Source of the DNA: Gemmatimonadota bacterium
Lineage (GTDB): Bacteria; Gemmatimonadota; Gemmatimonadetes; Gemmatimonadales; GWC2-71-9
Assembly: GCA_036679605.1 (NCBI GenBank)
Contig: JAZDCZ010000091.1
Coordinates: 1-64,000, forward strand
Reading direction: 5' to 3'
Length of the DNA stretch: 64,000 bases
Made by a program: the position numbers. Position 1 is the first letter of the stretch; the number at the start of each line of letters is the position of its first letter. Positions 1 to 24,000 of the stretch are shown piece by piece.

Positions 1-3000
1 GCCCCAGTGGTTTGGGAGCTTGATCCAGGACAAGCGTGATGCTACGGGGTTGATGTACATGCGGAACCGGTATTATGATCCCGGTACCGGTAGATTTACG
101 CAGGAAGACCCGATCGGGCTGGCGGGCGGGCTCAACCTATACGGATTCGCCAACGGGGATCCGATCAACTTCAGTGATCCGTTTGGGCTTCGCGCCTGCC
201 CACCCTGTGCCGGAGTGATGACCGGTGGAGCCATCGGGTCCATCTTTCCGGGTGCTGGGACTGTTGCAGGGGTCGTCGTCGGAGGTGTTGTGGGCACTGC
301 CGCTCTTGCCGGTGGCTATGTCTTTCTCTCTGAAGACGGAAGTGCGGCTGAGGAATCACGGGATGGCTCCCTAGACGAGCTGACGCGTGACGCCGACGGC
401 ACTGTCCGTCCGAACGGGGACATTGAAGTGCAAGGCGGTCGGGAGCGAGCCAAGGAAATATTTGGAAAGCATAATGTGGCCGACAAGCTTAGAATCGTCA
501 GGGATAGGACCGGTGGTGGTCGCGGAGTTGAAGGCAAAACGGGTGACGGTACGCGAATCCGTATTAGGTTCAAGCCTGACGGCTCGACACGAATTCAGGC
601 AGGCGATCAAAAGTTCATCTTCCCAAAACCAATGAATTGACGCGGGGATGACGATTCCGGTAAGAACTCTCGGTGTGCGCGCGGTCTCTCCACTGGATCA
701 GTTTCCAGAGATCGGGCGGCGTCGGGAGCAGCTCTTGAAGGACGTTTTTCCGACATCGTGCGACCTTGAGTTCTACGCGATCATTACCCAAGTATGCGTC
801 CACGAGCATGAGCGAGCAGAAGTGATAGAGGATTTCGATACGCTCTTTCGGCTCTCTGGTGAACCTACGGGCCGGAACCTCGACCGAACGAGGGCCCACT
901 TGAAGGTCACTGAAGGATCGAAGCGGATCAAACCAGCGGTGGCCACCGAGTTACTGAATTCGATGAGTCCCTCACGACATGTGTTGATTCGTTGCTGGGA
1001 GGATCCGAATTCTTACGTTTGGCAAGTGCCAGGCGAGGCCTTTTTTCGGGCGCGGGACATGCTGAAGGTTTTGCCTCATCCGTTTGGAGAATTCGAGGTA
1101 ACCGATGAAGGCGGTGCCTGGTTCATGCGAATTGTGGATGACGACCCGCTCATCTTTCTTCAGGCCCATTCCAAGCTGGGCCGTCGGCTAATCGACCTGG
1201 CTCCGAGCGAGGTCCTGCACGTCCAACCCAGCATTCGGTACCGTTGGTAACGGTGTTGCCAGTTCCGTAGTCTGGTCTCTTTGCGTGTGATAGCGTGCTC
1301 ATTATCGCATTGTAATGTATCGTGCTTGGATGTTGGGGTGGCACAGTCAGGGGGCTCTGACGTGAGCAGTGACGGGGTGCTTATGCGAGGACCGTCGCCC
1401 GGCAGACCCGAAATGCGTCTTCGACGACGTTCCACCCCACTCCCCCCCGAAAGTGCACGTCGGCGATTTTTAGTGCATATTACGATCAAAATCCGAGTGA
1501 GGTGAGCGGCTAAAGGAAGCAACCTCAACTGATTGCGGCGTCGGAGTCGTACCCGAACGCGTCGACCAGGACATATACGCAGGAAGACCCGATTGGGCTG
1601 GCCGGTGGGCTCAACCTCTACGGGTTTGCAAACGGGGATCCGATCAACTTCAGTGATCCGTTTGGGCTGTGTCCGGAGGATGTTGGTGGCGACGGAAAGA
1701 CAAGCTCCGTAGATGACTGTTCCGAAGACGTGCAGAATGCGTGGGCAGATGAGCACGTTAAGGTGAGTCCGGGGCACACAACCGACCTTGCTGGAATCGA
1801 TCCAGATTTGTGGAGTGCTGTTGTTCGAACGTCGATGGAACTCAGAGCCGACTTCGGGATATCTGCGGGGAAGGAAGACCGGGGTGGAGCCAGCGCGCAT
1901 AACGGCGGTCGAGCTGTGGACATCAATCGTGTCAATGGAACGCGGCTTCAGGATATGGACGCTGGCGTAGCCGCATCGCTCGGCAATCGTGTTGGGGCTG
2001 GGATCGTGAACCGCGTTGGTGGTCGCGGCATGGAGGTTTTCACGCCGGGTATGGCATTCCGAGTGGATACACGCTTGACACGGCAGTCTAGCTTGGCATT
2101 GCAGGCAAGTCACTTCAACCACGTACACGTGTCTGTCCGTCCATGATGGAAGAGGTCGGCATGGCGGTTAATCATATCGATTCTCAGCTGTCCTCATCCA
2201 TGTATCCGGTGTCCGGTGTCCGGTCCATCGTCGGTGGGTGGGGACGGGGTCGATACTGTCTACGGTGTGGACTAGTGTTTGCGGTTGCCGTGGCTATCGC
2301 GTGCGGTGACGGCGAGGAGGACTCTGCGTTCCAACAGTCACGTGAGTCAGAGGCTTCGACTACGGAGGCACCATCAGAGCTAGGCCAGAGCGCCAACCCG
2401 CTGGACTCGCTAATTGAAAACCTCAGGGACCTTCGTGGGTCATTTGTCAACGTAGCACCGGGGAGATGGGACTTCGCTGGTGATCGATCTGCTTTGGTGG
2501 CTTTCGAAGAATTCCGGGACTCGGCTGTTGTTCGGCTCGTGGACTGCCTGGATCGCACCGAACTAGCGGCCGCGACCGTGCAAGAGCAACAAGTACCAAT
2601 GGGGTACATGTGCTACGCTGCATTAGCCCGCGTGGCTTACTACGAGTGGCATCAGTACCAGGACGTGGTCAAAGACCCGTCGTGGCCAGGGGAAGTCGCA
2701 GCCACCGCGAGCGTGGAGGATCTCCGTCAAGCTAAGACGGCTTGGCTCCAGGTAGTGGAAAAGCACCTCTACTTCCTCCATTGACCGTGAACCCGCAACG
2801 TTAGTTTCGAAGACGACGGCAACTCATGACACTCACTCGGATCGCGGCGACCGTCGTAGTAGCACACTCCTGTGCATCGTTCGCCTTCGCGCACCAGGTC
2901 AGTCCATTCACGTGTTTGAGTGCCGGTGATTCCTTGCCGTCGGTGGGGGCGTATGGTCTTTTTGTAGACCGGGGTCGGCTCCTGTGCCTGGCACCCGATG

Positions 3001-21000: not shown

Positions 21001-24000
21001 AGCACAACTGGCGATTTGTGCCCGACGTCCGCGTCGATACCGTTGAATTCTCCATCGACGATGATCGCGAGGGGCCATTGAGGATAGTCTGCGCCTACCT
21101 CCCGCCGATACATGATGCGGCTATGCAGATGGCAGGAACGATTGAGCGGTTTGATGAAGAATCACGGGCGGCTTGGGAGGATGCGATGCGAAAAGCGCGG
21201 GAGCTACGGTAACCTGCGCTGGTGCGACTGCTGCTACGCAGAGCGCCGTCGTGATTCGACGAGGGCGTCGACGAACTTGAGGACGGCGCGTTGATCTGAC
21301 TGGGGCAGTTTTTCTACCTGCTGGATCCGTTTCATGAGCCTCGCCTTTTTCGGTGAGGCTTTTGGTTTCATGGGTTTCAATCCAAGTAGCCCGTCGGCGG
21401 AAACCTTGAGCGCGATTGCCAGGTCGGCGAGCAACGCGCCGGGCGGTTGAGCATCCTGTGTTTCGTAGTAGGCGATGACCCGCTGTGACACATCGACCAT
21501 GTGACCCAACTCGGCCTGTGTAACGTCCCGGGTCCGCCGGAGGTCTGCCAACCGCGGGCCAAAGCCTTCGATGGTCCGCTGCTTCATCTGCAACACCTCG
21601 CTCATGTCGTGACCTCCGAAGGGTAAGGGTGGTATCCGGTAACGGTGCGTCTGACTTGGACAGTTGGCGATACAGCCTGCGTGCCTTGGCAATGGAGGGA
21701 GCCGAGCTTAGACTGATACCATGCCGACGGTCCTCCGGACTGGCCCTTACCGATTCTTCTTCTATTCCGCCGATCGGGAGGAGCCGCCGCATGTGCACGT
21801 CGAGCGCGACGACTGCCGGGCGAAATTCTGGCTTGACACGGTCCGGCTGCACGACAGTACGGCGTTCCAACGCCCCGAACTTGGGCGCCTGGAGGGGATA
21901 GTGCAGAGGCATCACGACGAGTTGCTGAGAGCATGGCATGACTTCTTCGCCGCTTGAACTCCGGTCAGGGGTGGCTCAGACCGTCACGGTGACCGACGAG
22001 GCCCTGGTCGTCGACTTGGTGGATGGGCGAACTGTCTCTGTGCCGCTCATGTGGTTCCCCCGCCTCCTGCATGGCACACCTGCCGAGCGCGGCGAGTGGC
22101 GCTTGATCGGGCGCGGCGAGGGCATTCACTGGCAACGACTCGACGAGGATATCAGCGTCGACAGTCTGCTGGCGGGGCGCGCGTCTGGCGAGGCTCAGGC
22201 TTCGCTTCAACGTTGGCTCGAGAACCGCAAGGCTGCTGGCTGAAGTTACGTTAACTGGGGCCGCGGATGATCGATCTGGGGCCTGGGGGCACCGAACGAC
22301 GACTCGGTGCGTGACTGACTGCGTTTGGGCATTGCGGTGGGGTGCCGGTGGCCAGAGTGAACTCAAGTAGAGCGCTCTCGCAAGTGCAGCTGGTGGATCG
22401 CGGCTAAAGCCGCACGAGCAAGAGAAGATTCCGTCCCCACCACCCGCGAAGCGCGCCCCACTCCCCCTCAAGAGTGCACGTCGGCGATTTTCAGTGCATA
22501 TTACGATCAAAACTGTGCCGCGGATAAGAACGCGGATAGACGCGGACAACAGCTCTGGTCGACCGTAGGCTCCGCCCTGGCGGCCTGGCTTGCTGTAGGC
22601 CTGCTGCATGCACGTAGCAGGTTTACGGAGTCGATTCGCGTTAAATCCGCGCAACAATCCGCGGCCTGTATTATGATCCGGCTACCGGTAGATTTACGCA
22701 GGAAGACGAGCCGCGGATAGCAACGCGGATAGACGCGGATAACAACTCTGGTCGGCCGAAGACTCCGCCCTGGCGGCCTGGATTGTTGTAGTTCTGCGGC
22801 ATGCACGTAGCAGCCACGGATGATGGCGCGGATTGACAGGGCAGCGCGAGGACTTTCGTTCAGTTGTACTGGGAGCCGTGTGCTTTTCGCGTGCGAGATG
22901 GCCCGAAATCCGCGTTCATCCGCGCAACAGATCCGCGGCCCGGAAGACCCGATCGGGCTGGCCGGCGGGCTCAACCTGTATGGGTTTGCCAACGGGGATC
23001 CGGTTAATTTCAGTGATCCGTTTGGGCTGAAAGCGTGTGATCCGCCGGACGATCCAAGCTGCACGGGTGGTGAGGCTTCGACGGCTTCCGAAGCAGCTGG
23101 TAAGGTCGTCGACTTCCTTGAATCCCTTCCTGGAAAGGCCGTTTCACTCCTTGCTGAAGGGGTGGGTGCGTTCGGCCGGATTCTAAGCTCGGTGGTTCCT
23201 GGGGTTGGGAACGCGGCGGCTGCGGCGACTGGCATCGATCCTGAAGGGAACCGCCTAGGTAATCTAGCCCGAGCAGCAGCTGTGGGAGCTGCTGTCACGG
23301 AGGTCGTACTTACTAGACCCACGCCCGGCGGCGACGGAGGGATTTCTCGACATGTCCTAGAAAAGGTGGGAGGTCGAACTAACCGCGTTATCCATCAGGT
23401 CGAACGAGCTGGAGGGATCGTGCACCAACATACGACTCACGTCGGTAAGTATGGGGGATTAAGGCGCTTTCCAGACAAGTGGACGGGAATACCAACCATC
23501 AAGAGGTGACGATATGGGATCGGATCTCGAACCGTTCATCGTCGACGTCATAGAGATGAGCCAGCGAGTGATTAGTGAATTCCGATCAACGCTGGCAGCA
23601 CTCGGTTTGGACGCAGACGTGCCTCAAGTGAGCCGTTCTCCCCATGGCGTAGAGATCGTCTCCTATGTGCGCCGCCAGGGAGATATTGAGGATGCCATTG
23701 AGTTTGCGGCGGTCGAGAATGACCGGGTCACTTACTCCGTGAGAGAACTAGAGAAGTGGCTTCGTAACGCGCTGGACGATGTCGTCCGCAGAGCGGTTGA
23801 GGGAGCGTGAGGATTGTCGTCGGCTACTGGAGAGGCTCTGGGCCTGGGATCACAAAGATCGACTCTCGGGTTAGCTCTACTAATCTGGGCAATCCCAGTA
23901 CACGCGCGAAGGCCGCAGTGCGATAGCCACCGAGCGGTCTGCCAGCGCCAGTTTCTATGGGGCGGATGAGAAGCTGATGTTTCAGCAGTCGAATAACGAC

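Follow-up and report, generated by a model that had tools for sequence, protein, structure and literature searches.

Orphan Rhs tips of a Gemmatimonadota bacterium and an XRE-primase-integrase module that recurs beside Rhs core-ends

Introduction

Orphan Rhs and CdiA-CT arrays, together with 'C-terminal displacement', were reportedly described by Jackson et al. in 2009, and orphan Rhs arrays are also said to have been studied in Salmonella. To our knowledge, the known orphan Rhs arrays are explained by homologous recombination alone. Integrons have a promoter-bearing platform from which the adjacent cassette is expressed while the others are silent, as well as TA cassettes and a tyrosine recombinase. 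P4-like satellites, PICIs, tycheposons and tandem accretion at tRNA genes involve an integrase, a primase and a repressor, with tandem copies at one site. In the R64-type shufflon, alternative C-terminal segments are swapped by the tyrosine recombinase Rci, whose short target sites lie within a coding region. Ross et al. 2019 is reportedly the original paper on rAID, an acquired form of interbacterial defence associated with a recombinase. According to a later source, rAID serves interbacterial toxin conflict in Bacteroidales, and the route by which its arrays are built is stated there to be unknown (PMC12247911).

Here we describe an array of orphan Rhs tips in a window of 64,000 nucleotides (positions 1 to 64,000 of contig JAZDCZ010000091.1, assembly GCA_036679605.1). 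A first-pass annotation had read it as an integron-like store of cassettes, possibly shuffled by site-specific recombination at a palindrome.

Results and Discussion

Anatomy of the array

Nine copies of the 99-nt Rhs core-end, all on the plus strand, were located with a repeat finder (starts at 92, 1571, 9075, 11326, 13723, 15931, 18044, 20097 and 22931). The core-ends offer ~100 nt of 79-95% identity, and 8/9 are orphans, each with its own distinct tip. Frames read from each DPIGL motif (n=9, 184-232 aa stop to stop) are alike up to DPFGL and unrelated beyond it. In seven of the eight orphans, no in-frame ATG, GTG or TTG precedes the final Leu codon of the second DPxGL. Pfam/NCBIfam matches of the tips are to Phage_lysozyme, followed by LprI, and to Peptidase_M23. 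The 237-nt unit of head plus core-end is present in six copies (starts at 1436, 8940, 11191, 13588, 15796 and 17909; 87-93% identity to the reference), and the first ~60-83 nt of the head in eight, including head-only copies at 17664 and 22463. By blastn against the whole assembly, the head is found on the window contig only, while core-ends are also present on C393 (two copies), C236, C313, C149 and C372. The features are as follows.

2-640, plus: 3' end of the expressed rhs gene, core end (DPIGL...DPFGL) and tip 0; TIGR03696 Rhs_assc_core, 72.2 bits; frame open from the contig start
648-1250, plus: putative immunity gene of tip 0, an ORF 8 nt past the tip stop with no Pfam match; role suggested by position
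1431-1672, plus: unit 1, 145-nt head and core-end, candidate left junction of the intact element (repeat finder, blastn)
1514-2146, plus: orphan 1, core-end and tip 1, no start codon ahead of the second DPxGL (frame reading)
2143-3509, plus: two small genes after tip 1 (2143-2784, 2826-3509), putative immunity or cargo; ORFs without families
3570-3971, minus: XRE/RstR-like HTH repressor, divergent from the primase; HTH_3 2.8e-15; RstR family at 65 bits, short of the 80 required
4114-7048, plus: DnaG-type primase in two parts owing to a frame change; CHC2 zinc finger at 4114-4482, Toprim with a long C-terminal part at 4406-7048
7003-8067, plus: XerC-like tyrosine integrase of the element; Phage_integrase 6.8e-39; NF002331 'XerC' 394.6 bits
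8330-8933, plus: VapB-like gene (8330-8548) and VapC PIN toxin (8532-8933; PIN 3.5e-20), ending 1 nt ahead of the next head
8934-9176, plus: unit 2, head and core-end, candidate right junction of the intact element (repeat finder, blastn)
9057-9944, plus: orphan 2 (9057-9611) and putative immunity gene (9612-9944); ORFs, DPIGL frame
10037-10249, minus: XRE remnant, residues 63-133 (tblastn 69%)
10442-11183, plus: HigB-like (Gp49)/HigA-like (HTH_37) pair (Pfam), ending 8 nt ahead of the head
11192-11427, plus: unit 3 (repeat finder, blastn)
11269-12614, plus: orphan 3 (11269-11892) and putative immunity gene (11889-12614); ORFs, DPIGL frame
12889-13528, plus: MNT nucleotidyltransferase/HepT pair (Pfam)
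13587-13824, plus: unit 4 (repeat finder, blastn)
13705-14615, plus: orphan 4, lysozyme tip (13705-14277; Phage_lysozyme 1.3e-30), and LprI-type lysozyme inhibitor (14274-14615; LprI 2.3e-12)
14766-15129, minus: XRE pseudogene, residues 52-133, plus 4-42 in another frame (tblastn)
15794-16032, plus: unit 5 (repeat finder, blastn)
15874-17066, plus: orphan 5, weak DUF6782 metallopeptidase match, and putative immunity gene (16488-17066); Pfam, DPIGL frame
17134-17621, plus: HicB-position gene (17134-17376) and HicA toxin (17373-17621; HicA_toxin 2.2e-13)
17653-17908, plus: interrupted head, a head fragment followed by CGCGGAT-repeat DNA (repeat finder, blastn, comparison with G062)
17909-18145, plus: unit 6 (repeat finder, blastn)
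18026-19317, plus: orphan 6, M23 peptidase tip (18026-18628; Peptidase_M23 4e-13), and putative immunity gene (18616-19317)
19378-19443, minus: XRE remnant, last 22 residues, cut by an inverted-repeat element (tblastn)
19447-20107, no strand: small element with inverted CGCGGAT-triplet ends in place of the orphan 7 head; holds a GxxExxY PD-(D/E)XK gene (19557-19991, minus)
20076-21212, plus: orphan 7 (20076-20672) and putative immunity gene (20688-21212); ORFs, DPIGL frame
21234-21692, minus: intact-looking XRE gene, 152 aa (ORF, similarity)
22454-22940, plus: head fragment, copy of the inverted-repeat element, rhs core piece (YYDPATGRFTQED) and second element copy
22811-23810, plus: orphan 8 (22811-23509) and putative immunity gene (23514-23810); ORFs, DPIGL frame

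The first-pass annotation is borne out on the row of spare tips, the six full units (237-267 nt) with two head fragments, the core-ends on other contigs (blastn), the XerC-like integrase with its primase (Pfam/NCBIfam) and the lysozyme tip followed by an LprI-type gene (Pfam). Its view of the array as a store of toxin-tip/immunity cassettes behind the rhs gene also holds. An XRE gene or remnant is kept on the opposite strand in 5/8 window cassettes, and most cassettes lack an integrase. The ATG of orphan 8, at 22820, falls in element-derived DNA. In the one public run, contigs break at every repeat unit, and the cassette order is that of the assembly alone; the unique segments of the array have even depth (12.6-17). 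Contamination of the source MAG is 6.3%, and its size is almost double that of its congener.

The element and its integrase

What appears to be a full element is seen once, at ~1571-9074, in the gene order core-end, tip, immunity gene(s), divergent XRE, DnaG-type primase, XerC-like integrase, TA pair and 145-nt head. Direct copies of the ~240-nt unit stand on either side of it (1431-1672 and 8934-9176). The earlier suggestion that integrase and primase belong to an integrative element between two repeats is thus correct, but the element is probably no accidental visitor, with the tip as its cargo and the core-end as its likely attachment site. The primase is one continuous ORF in locus L001 and is split over two frames in the window; thus, the window copy may be dead.

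The integrase exceeds the cut-off of the NF002331 model (371 bits) and scores 111.7 bits with the integron-integrase model, against a cut-off of 265. It aligns along XerD (1a0p), with the R, K, H-x-x-R, H and Y motif stretches read by eye. The genome's own XerD is encoded on C133 and a XerC-like gene lies on C251, the element integrase being an extra paralogue. A tip 44.6% identical to tip 1 adjoins an integrase homologue in G216 (locus L080), where a relative of the 2143-2784 gene follows the tip-1-like tip.

Recurrence of the module in the family and across phyla

In a survey of 401 genomes of the family, integrase homologues (46-60% identical) were found at 15 places, 13 of them no more than about 1.3 kb away from an Rhs core-end; no core-end was found in the fetched DNA at the other two (G012, G079). 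At eight places the integrase is followed, after 58-1051 nt, by a core-end on the same strand. A second Gemmatimonadaceae MAG has the same order of head, core-end, tip, small gene, XRE (opposite strand) and primase. On G315:C121, the order is primase, integrase, VapBC, diverged head and core-end, and a VapBC pair also lies between integrase and core-end in G180, G044 and G157.

The 80 best integrase relatives in the genome collection come, by record titles, from Gemmatimonadota, Acidobacteriota, Myxococcota, Pseudomonadota, Verrucomicrobiota, Nitrospirales, Planctomycetota and others. A primase is directly upstream in 68/80 and a divergent XRE is present in 30/80. A small Rhs-end profile, built partly from motifs in the searched loci and uncertain in its weak matches (E 1e-3 to 1e-2), gave 49 matches on the integrase strand and 0 on the other in these relatives, 48 of the 49 being downstream of the integrase (median 940 nt). 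Of the 45 loci whose downstream flank is 2 kb or longer, 32 have a match and 13 have none. ORFs downstream of the relatives carry polymorphic-toxin ends (HNH, AHH, NlpC/P60, M91, eCIS_core), RHS repeats and ParDE/PIN pairs. Tandem modules share a contig in L100/L101 (integrases 8832 nt apart), L115/116, L122/125 and L141/142, and a second module starts ~3 kb past the integrase in L105, L125, L135 and L151. On sequence comparison, the integrase belongs to a conserved XRE-primase-integrase module of many phyla.

These data bear on classical C-terminal displacement, in which homologous recombination alone would move tips on any DNA and the primase-integrase element would be a chance passenger. 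This is the textbook view of how orphan arrays are built, and the length and identity of the core-ends, the mosaic head haplotypes among the six units and the absence of the integrase from most cassettes all agree with it. However, a chance landing leaves unexplained why one integrase clade is at core-ends in 13/15 family places, the 49:0 strand bias across phyla and the XRE remnants in 5/8 cassettes. Neither would homologous recombination alone account for an identical minimal core piece, as opposed to variable lengths, in the orphans. We consider this explanation unlikely.

Left boundary of the orphans

Within a lineage, all orphans start at the same core nucleotide, a sharp common boundary that is expected from the element's own structure under integrase action and homologous recombination alike. 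In lineages without any head, the adjacency of integrase and core-end is still there and the junction is sharp. In one head-less lineage, 15/17 orphans have, 12 nt upstream, a hexamer that matches the reverse complement of the first six DP-codon bases (11 orphans at 6/6, four at 5/6); the two main genes have 2/6 and 4/6. No clean inverted repeat spanning the junction was found in the window lineage.

The head and its palindrome

The first ~60 nt of the head are the best-conserved part of the unit across genera (84-95%, vs 69-89% for the coding core-end). This, the occurrence of the head start alone at two places and the Xer-like integrase would suit a resident recombinase that shuffles cassettes at a dif-like head palindrome, as on an integron-like platform. 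However, the '39-nt imperfect palindrome' of the first-pass annotation, although present, is just GTGCAC plus 6-nt arms (GATTTT/AAAATC) 17 nt apart. Its folding as single-stranded DNA does not surpass that of shuffled sequences (z -0.05), and RNAalifold over 28 heads gave 0 pairs; no folded attC-like sites were found by either approach. The arms are neither kept nor compensated in the diverged heads of G315 and G123, and the adjacency in head-less lineages does without a head altogether. A HicBA-head-core-end block in G062 is 91.5% identical to that of the window, stands in another neighbourhood and has its head uninterrupted. Thus, the head-only copies are heads broken by inserted repeat DNA, and the block itself points to mosaic cassettes among congeneric genomes. 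A crossover at the palindrome is therefore not supported, no test favoured the label 'dif-like', and the platform explanation is very improbable. Nor is this an integron proper, given the score far under the integron-integrase cut-off, the lack of folded attC-like sites and a recombinase that is borne on a cassette with primase and repressor rather than on a fixed platform. The logic is integron-like, yet it is not an integron.

A chiefly regulatory head, with no role in recombination, would be a promoter or operator of the divergent XRE and/or a promoter for stored immunity genes. The head is the sole A+T-rich stretch of the unit, and compact arrays in G039 have an XRE gene whose 5' end extends into the left end of the head. 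Substitutions in its first part are commoner at third positions of the minus-strand frame (a small hand count from an alignment read by eye). A tip-frame stop codon 25 codons ahead of DPIGL is kept in the three window heads whose frame is open that far and in five distant heads, and silent orphans need a promoter for their immunity genes. Against this, no sigma-70-like promoter match was found in any head on either strand, nor any DNA similarity to XRE-primase intergenic regions. The left neighbour varies (TA pair, truncated XRE or integrase), which ties the head to the core-end rather than to XRE. The regulatory explanation, possible though doubtful, concerns the head only and is compatible with an integrative element. 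We infer that the head is carried by the element as DNA flanking the attachment region and is not a dif site; its role may be regulation or accessory-protein binding.

Origin of the array

The array probably, though by no means surely, arose by repeated integration, tandem accretion and decay of small integrative elements for which the rhs core-end is the attachment site and a tip the likely cargo. An excised, circular element would recombine, through its own last ~30 rhs-core codons, with the same sequence in the chromosomal rhs; the integrase would act there, and strand exchange would fall at the core-end. The incoming tip would be fused in frame to the Rhs delivery part, giving an expressed toxin. 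The former tip would be displaced downstream without a start codon, with the integrase-side end (TA pair and head) now ahead of it. Repeats of this would yield a tandem row in which older copies lose primase and integrase, leaving tip, immunity gene, XRE remnant, TA pair and head. Stored immunity genes would still protect, and the TA pairs would probably stabilise the row.

Counting against this reading, homologous recombination via the ~100-nt core-end would give the same final structure. The tip 0 cassette, beside the rhs gene, lacks an integrase, and either a secondary loss or a swap through homologous recombination must be invoked to explain this. Neither an excision product nor an empty site nor an attB/attP pair turned up; contigs of the single run end in repeats and leave joints ambiguous. 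Of the earlier proposal of site-specific recombination, the placement at the palindrome falls; a dedicated Xer-like tyrosine recombinase very probably takes part in building such stores, as its association with core-ends (13/15 family places, 32/45 loci, 49:0 by strand) suggests.

Comparison with known systems

As in orphan Rhs/CdiA-CT arrays, a main rhs gene is followed by start-less core-end copies with different tips and their own immunity genes, and stored tips could in principle move onto the main gene. Unlike in those arrays, each window orphan retains an identical minimal stretch of core, preceded by a conserved non-coding head, cassettes carry repressor-primase-integrase remnants and TA pairs, and a dedicated integrase clade tracks core-ends across phyla.

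The divergent repressor, replication primase and tyrosine integrase beside an attachment site, the carried 3' end of the target gene and the tandem arrays with decayed copies recall P4-like satellites, PICIs and tycheposons. However, the apparent target here is a protein-coding toxin gene, at its conserved end, and not a tRNA gene. As the duplicated rhs end continues into a different coding sequence, integration would alter the product.

With integrons, the locus shares a platform (the rhs gene), an expressed adjacent insert with the rest stored silent, TA cassettes and a tyrosine recombinase. It differs in having no IntI-type integrase and no folded attC sites, in its cassette-borne recombinase, and in that insertion would result in a protein fusion, whereas that in integrons is transcriptional. 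The R64 shufflon likewise has a tyrosine recombinase and alternative C-terminal segments, and orphans stand in both orientations beside the integrase in G180, G377 and G018. All nine window core-ends are direct, so switching by inversion is impossible in the window, and inversion was not observed among the loci examined.

Like rAID (PMC12247911), the array would function in interbacterial toxin conflict. rAID stores orphan immunity genes apart from toxin genes (PMC12247911), whereas full tips with core-ends lie behind rhs here, and the recombinase here shares one cassette with a primase and a repressor.

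The orphan-tip array

By its anatomy, the locus is an Rhs orphan-tip array. A 99-nt stretch coding for the end of the Rhs core (core-end, DPIGL...DPFGL) was found nine times with a repeat finder, at 92, 1571, 9075, 11326, 13723, 15931, 18044, 20097 and 22931, always on the + strand. Six of the nine lie in a 237-267-nt unit that also includes the non-coding head, with copies 87-93% identical to one another, and the first ~60 nt of the unit stand alone at 17653 and 22454. Within the assembly, the head is confined to this one contig (blastn), and core-ends are additionally present on five short contigs. 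The nine frames read from DPIGL are 184-232 aa from stop to stop, the same through DPFGL and wholly different beyond. The first frame (2-637) is still open at the contig start and fits the Rhs core model (TIGR03696, 72.2 bits, cut-off 32.5), and is therefore the end of the expressed rhs gene; it ends in DPxGL-18-DPxGL, with the gene body off the contig. Thus, eight orphan core-ends with different tips behind a main rhs end, six full units, head-only copies and core-ends on five other contigs, as described in the first-pass annotation, are all borne out.

No in-frame ATG, GTG or TTG precedes the last codon of the second DPxGL in seven of the eight orphans. The last orphan is the only one with an in-frame ATG upstream of its core-end (22820, within inverted-repeat-element DNA), from which it could be translated alone as a 229-aa protein. 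A small ORF, a putative immunity gene, abuts or overlaps the stop of every tip, often by 4 nt. The sole family-level match of tip and immunity gene (Pfam) is the phage-type lysozyme tip followed by an LprI lysozyme inhibitor, which had been correctly noticed before; another tip is an M23 peptidase. The GC content of the array (0.57-0.63) is similar to that of the remainder of the window. A 76-nt piece of the interior of tip 3 (11653-11728) is repeated with 93% identity at 23834-23909, where the array ends, just past its last immunity gene.

The small genes after the tips were already recognised in the first-pass annotation; the stretch up to the next head also carries TA pairs and XRE-type repressor genes or remnants, as follows.

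TA pairs and XRE sequences in the cassettes
8330-8933, VapBC pair, directly before a head
10442-11183, HigB/HigA-like pair, directly before a head
12889-13528, MNT/HepT pair, directly before a head
17134-17621, HicA and partner gene, directly before a head
3570-3971, opposite strand, XRE gene, intact
21234-21692, opposite strand, XRE gene, intact-looking
10037-10249, 14766-15129 and 19378-19443, opposite strand, XRE fragments

Four different type II families occupy one slot, ending 1-58 nt before a head, and the same pre-head slot is taken by ParDE or PIN pairs in distant phyla (loci L146, L151 and L093). XRE genes or remnants are found in five of the eight cassettes.

A single public sequencing run, available as contigs only, was compared with 1-20000. 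Its pieces stop at each repeat unit, and the cassette order given here is the one in the assembly. Depth over unique segments is even (12.6-17), and joints fall in the paralogous region 22454-22740, or are short-sided (23-37 nt) and at other depths. One run contig joins 8277 to the head at 8937, omitting VapBC, at a depth of 20 versus ~15; the source of this contig may be a variant locus or a relative lacking the VapBC module. The MAG is 6.7 Mb versus 3.7 Mb for a congener, with 6.3% contamination.

An integrase and primase in cassette 1

Cassette 1 is the only complete one, consisting of tip 1, two small genes, XRE, a divergent DnaG-type primase, a tyrosine integrase, VapBC and the next head. 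The primase is in two overlapping frames (4114-4482 with the zinc finger part, 4406-7048 with the Toprim part, overlap 4406-4482), but is one continuous ORF in a related MAG (L001). The split may reflect a frameshift, an assembly error or decay. The integrase (354 aa) scores 394.6 bits against the NCBIfam XerC subfamily model NF002331 (cut-off 371) and aligns with XerD (1a0p) over residues 36-314, spanning by eye the R, K, HxxR, H and Y motif stretches, which we take to be the catalytic residues. The enzyme thus appears to retain an intact catalytic set. The source genome has its own XerD (contig C133, 341.9 bits, above cut-off) and, on C251, a XerC-like gene (277.6 bits); the window integrase, which ranks third, is therefore an extra paralogue.

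The first-pass annotation had placed the integrase and primase between direct copies of the unit. This bracketing is confirmed (1431-1672 and 8934-9176, ~92% alike), with the integrase ending 867 nt before the second copy, and the role now proposed is that of an integrated, tip-carrying element. Direct repeats of this kind with an integrase beside one of them resemble attL/attR-type bounds.

The head and its palindrome

The head was previously thought to carry a dif-like palindrome. Its only inverted elements are GTGCAC and one 6-nt arm pair (GATTTT/AAAATC, 17 nt apart), with nothing longer. Compared with dinucleotide shuffles, single-stranded folding is unremarkable for the first 61 nt (z -0.05), the junction (-0.10) and the whole unit (+0.14), and the arms are altered without compensation in the diverged heads of two other genomes of the family (G315 and G123). 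A profile search gave 45 head matches in other genomes, from which 28 distinct full copies were aligned, one unpublished genome being excluded; RNAalifold found no consensus base pairs in the 28-head alignment. A dif-like palindrome is thus not upheld, in a comparison made with no phylum-specific dif consensus. By eye, a hairpin with covarying stems round a conserved AAAGTGCAC loop is seen only in distant heads (L088, L089, L092 and L161) and is absent from the window type.

The head is nonetheless under constraint: its first part is better kept between genera than the coding core-end (84-95% versus 69-89%), and some blocks, GC-N-GCTAA for example, vary little or not at all across the 28 copies. 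Recognisable heads extend as far as a Polyangiaceae MAG. G039, a genome of the same family, has compact arrays in which an XRE gene extends into the left end of the head with its frame running on, as would fit a promoter or operator. However, the left neighbour of the head is variable, whereas the right neighbour is always a core-end, and a promoter scan of 8500-18500 found no sigma-70-like sites in the heads. An origin of the head as the 5' end of an XRE gene is suggestive in G039 only. A copy of the XRE-primase intergenic region was rejected as its source, as local alignments were empty. An Rfam scan of 1-26000 gave nothing at gathering score, and one weak match (E 0.51) outside the heads.

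An in-frame TAA lies 25 codons before the D of DPIGL at 1511-1513, and equivalently in the heads at 11192 and 15794 and in L088, L089, L092 and L161. These two window heads and that at 1431 are the three with a frame open back to TAA; those at 8934, 13587 and 17909 have a nearer in-frame TAG instead. A 1-nt gap in the G315 head shifts the stop to a neighbouring TGA.

A small inverted-repeat element and other neighbours

A small element with inverted ends, each of three CGCGGAT repeats, is inserted at or in the unit.

Copies of the CGCGGAT element
19447-20107, containing a GxxExxY PD-(D/E)XK gene (19557-19991, minus strand)
22518-22663
22711-22938
17717-17835
94207-94328 of C332, another contig of the genome

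All copies touch Rhs sequence, two of them exactly at the core-end junction with GGAAGAC on both flanks. The C332 copy (122 nt) interrupts an rhs core gene, the frame of which would be restored if the copy were removed. Among 401 family genomes, the pattern was found in the source genome only. Its insertion at or in the unit accounts for the head-less orphans at 20097 and 22931 and for the two head-only copies. In a genome of the same genus, a HicBA-head-core-end block, 91.5% identical, is uninterrupted and in a different neighbourhood.

Further along the window, a tRNA-Pro (35894-35968) is followed by a divergent integrase-like gene (36062-37438, minus strand, weak Pfam match) and then, also on the minus strand, by an AAA_25 gene (37862-39079). 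The region 35894-39079 is thus a tRNA-linked integrative element of the ordinary kind and has no relation to the array.

Integrase relatives beside Rhs core-ends in the family

The family survey covered 401 genomes, with tallies that include the unpublished G014, G285, G068 and G133, on which no individual claim depends. Matches of ~35-38% identity are found in nearly every genome and were taken as the genomes' own Xer proteins. Identities of 46-60% to the window integrase are found at just 15 places in 14 of the 400 other genomes, and an Rhs core-end lies within ~1.3 kb at 13 of these 15.

Arrangement of integrase and core-end
G018, G322, G215 and G045: integrase then core-end, same strand, 58, 85, 105 and 142 nt apart, respectively
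G315 (contig C66), G086 and G207: integrase then core-end, same strand, 290, 985 and 1051 nt apart, respectively
G315 (contig C121): integrase then core-end, same strand, 993 nt apart and separated by VapBC and a diverged head; primase upstream
G007: contig ends inside the junction motif
G180 and G377: integrase divergent, core-end 118 nt away
G216 and G289: tip between core-end and integrase

In G012 and G079, there is no core-end within the fetched DNA. Orphan core-ends occur in both orientations round the integrase in L073 (G180, contig C1), L076 (G377, C2) and L077 (G018, C40); in L076, the main gene is at 4823 on the + strand, orphans are at 7798 and 10054 on the - strand, and the XRE genes are mirrored. 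Recombination between such inverted sites would swap tips by inversion, in the manner of a shufflon. No inversion event was observed.

The module across phyla

The best 80 of 526 integrase relatives in a species-level genome collection are 44-63% identical and, by record titles, come from Gemmatimonadota, Acidobacteriota, Myxococcota, several Pseudomonadota classes, Verrucomicrobiota, Nitrospirales, Planctomycetota, Bdellovibrionales and candidate phyla. Among these best 80, a primase is directly upstream in 68 (its zinc-finger part detected in 57) and a divergent XRE gene is found in 30. An initial regular expression found Rhs ends at 14 of the 80 loci; the profile that replaced it (28 residues, E <= 0.01), built from 61 motif instances, some of them from the scored loci themselves, found them at 40. 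Each of the 49 profile matches shares the strand of the integrase, with zero on the opposite strand; 48 lie downstream of it, where the median distance to the first match is 940 nt. When only loci with a downstream flank of 2 kb or more are considered, 32 of 45 have a match, 19 of these at E <= 1e-5.

In 42 loci, 178 ORFs were called over both strands, and 123 of these, downstream and on the same strand, were analysed with Pfam. The analysis identified toxin domains (HNH, AHH, NlpC/P60, M91 and eCIS-core), RHS repeats, and modules of the ParDE and PIN types. The window, L001, L088, L094, L105, L125 and L135 share one gene order, namely core-end, tip, small gene, XRE (opposite strand), primase, and tandem modules recur on single contigs. 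Full-text searches, with most subscription journals outside their reach, found no published description of an element with integrase and primase that targets rhs.

Junctions

Within each lineage, orphans start at one fixed core nucleotide, and the point varies between lineages. In Gemmatimonadota, it is immediately ahead of TQ(E)DPIGL; several Gammaproteobacteria have it at NYFRDYDP; and in some Acidobacteriota and Nitrospirales it is hundreds of nt further up, with RHS repeats taken in. In a head-less type from Gemmatimonadaceae, the element-side hexamer, which lies 12 nt ahead of the DP codons, was compared with the first six coding bases in reverse complement. Of 17 orphans, 11 match at 6/6 and four more at 5/6, versus 2/6 and 4/6 in the two main genes, and both sides are altered together in one orphan. 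The hexamer pair looks like a recombinase core site, with the proviso that the junctions share descent and their count is no statistical test. No clean inverted hexamer pair was found at the window-type junction.

In L038 (G039, contig C21), from another genus, two cassettes have a 78-nt insertion at the same junction point (~1537-1615 and 3223-3300), between CCA(A/G) and GAAGAC of the core-end. The junction point seems prone to insertions.

A proposed mechanism

Cassette 1 (~1571-9074) is most likely one integrated copy of the element, with the remaining cassettes being decayed copies. A circle carrying head, core-end and tip would recombine through its core-end with that of the chromosomal rhs gene, which would place the incoming tip in frame behind the Rhs body and displace the old tip downstream, behind the integrase, TA pair and head, a layout that matches the observed one exactly. 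Integration via the core-end would explain why orphans have heads and the expressed copy has none, and displacement would explain why heads follow TA genes and orphans have no start codons. Repeated integration would likewise leave XRE remnants in cassettes and tandem modules. That the integrase, rather than RecA working on the same 100 nt, acts at the core-end is inferred from sequence comparison. The cassette of tip 0, nearest to the rhs gene, has no integrase; therefore later loss or homologous exchange must occur too, as is also shown by mosaic head haplotypes and by the HicBA block shared with a different neighbourhood.

Taken together, it is possible, at a little under even confidence, that self-replicating integrative elements in many phyla use the last codons of rhs as their attachment site, each integration translationally fusing its own tip to the host's delivery protein and retiring the previous tip. 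Orphan arrays would then be the fossil record of these events, and the same integrase could later excise, re-insert or (with inverted sites) flip stored cassettes, switching the expressed toxin. The role for a recombinase that the first-pass annotation proposed is kept in a different, broader form, without crossover at a dif-like palindrome and without integron membership.

To our knowledge, the only explanation so far for new ends of Rhs and other polymorphic toxins, and for the rows of displaced ends, has been homologous recombination with incoming DNA of unknown nature. If the above is true, a dedicated, phylum-spanning vehicle, which has an integrase, a replication gene, a repressor and an addiction module of its own and splices a tip and antidote in frame onto the host rhs, would give toxin-end acquisition a concrete, testable mechanism. 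It would moreover belong to the rare mobile elements that rewrite the product of their target gene by integrating, and would supply a natural recombinase/site pair for exchanging C-terminal protein modules in frame.

Comparison with known systems

Integrons are marked by an IntI-type integrase, by attC imperfect inverted repeats that fold as single strands, and by a fixed platform of intI, attI and Pc. The array resembles them in having a platform gene, an expressed first cassette, a silent store, TA cassettes and a tyrosine recombinase, and the pre-head TA slot recalls the stabilising TA cassettes of large chromosomal integrons. However, the window integrase falls far below the cut-offs of TIGR02249 (111.7 bits versus 265) and NF011946 (78.3 versus 435), the head, junction and unit have no attC-type folding, and the integrase lies inside cassette 1 with the primase and repressor rather than on a fixed platform; the expression platform is presumably the rhs gene itself. 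The array is thus integron-like in logic but is not an integron.

The Xer/dif system is a housekeeping recombinase pair, with one set per genome and a 28-bp dif (11-6-11). The window integrase, which ranks third in its genome and has a close clade of such scattered family occurrence (15 places, 14/400), is not part of it. The array also differs from a shufflon, as all nine window core-ends are on the + strand with no inverted sites, mixed orientations being found in other genomes only. Some integrative satellites and islands pile up in tandem and bring along a duplicate of their target gene's 3' end. The element resembles these in build, but here a toxin gene is the target, and the duplicated end runs on into a new coding end.

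In function, the nearest described thing is the rAID of Bacteroidales, in which a tyrosine recombinase accompanies co-oriented short orphan-immunity genes and conserved intergenic motifs (PMC12247911). By that description, the array is alike in form, with a recombinase, co-oriented short genes and a conserved intergenic motif. rAIDs are low-GC arrays of Bacteroidales; the host here belongs to the Gemmatimonadaceae, and array GC is 0.57-0.63. The biogenesis of rAIDs is stated there to be unknown (PMC12247911), and the element described here may shed light on it. The comparative signal is strong, and the array joins known kinds, namely orphan Rhs arrays and tandem-accreting integrative elements.
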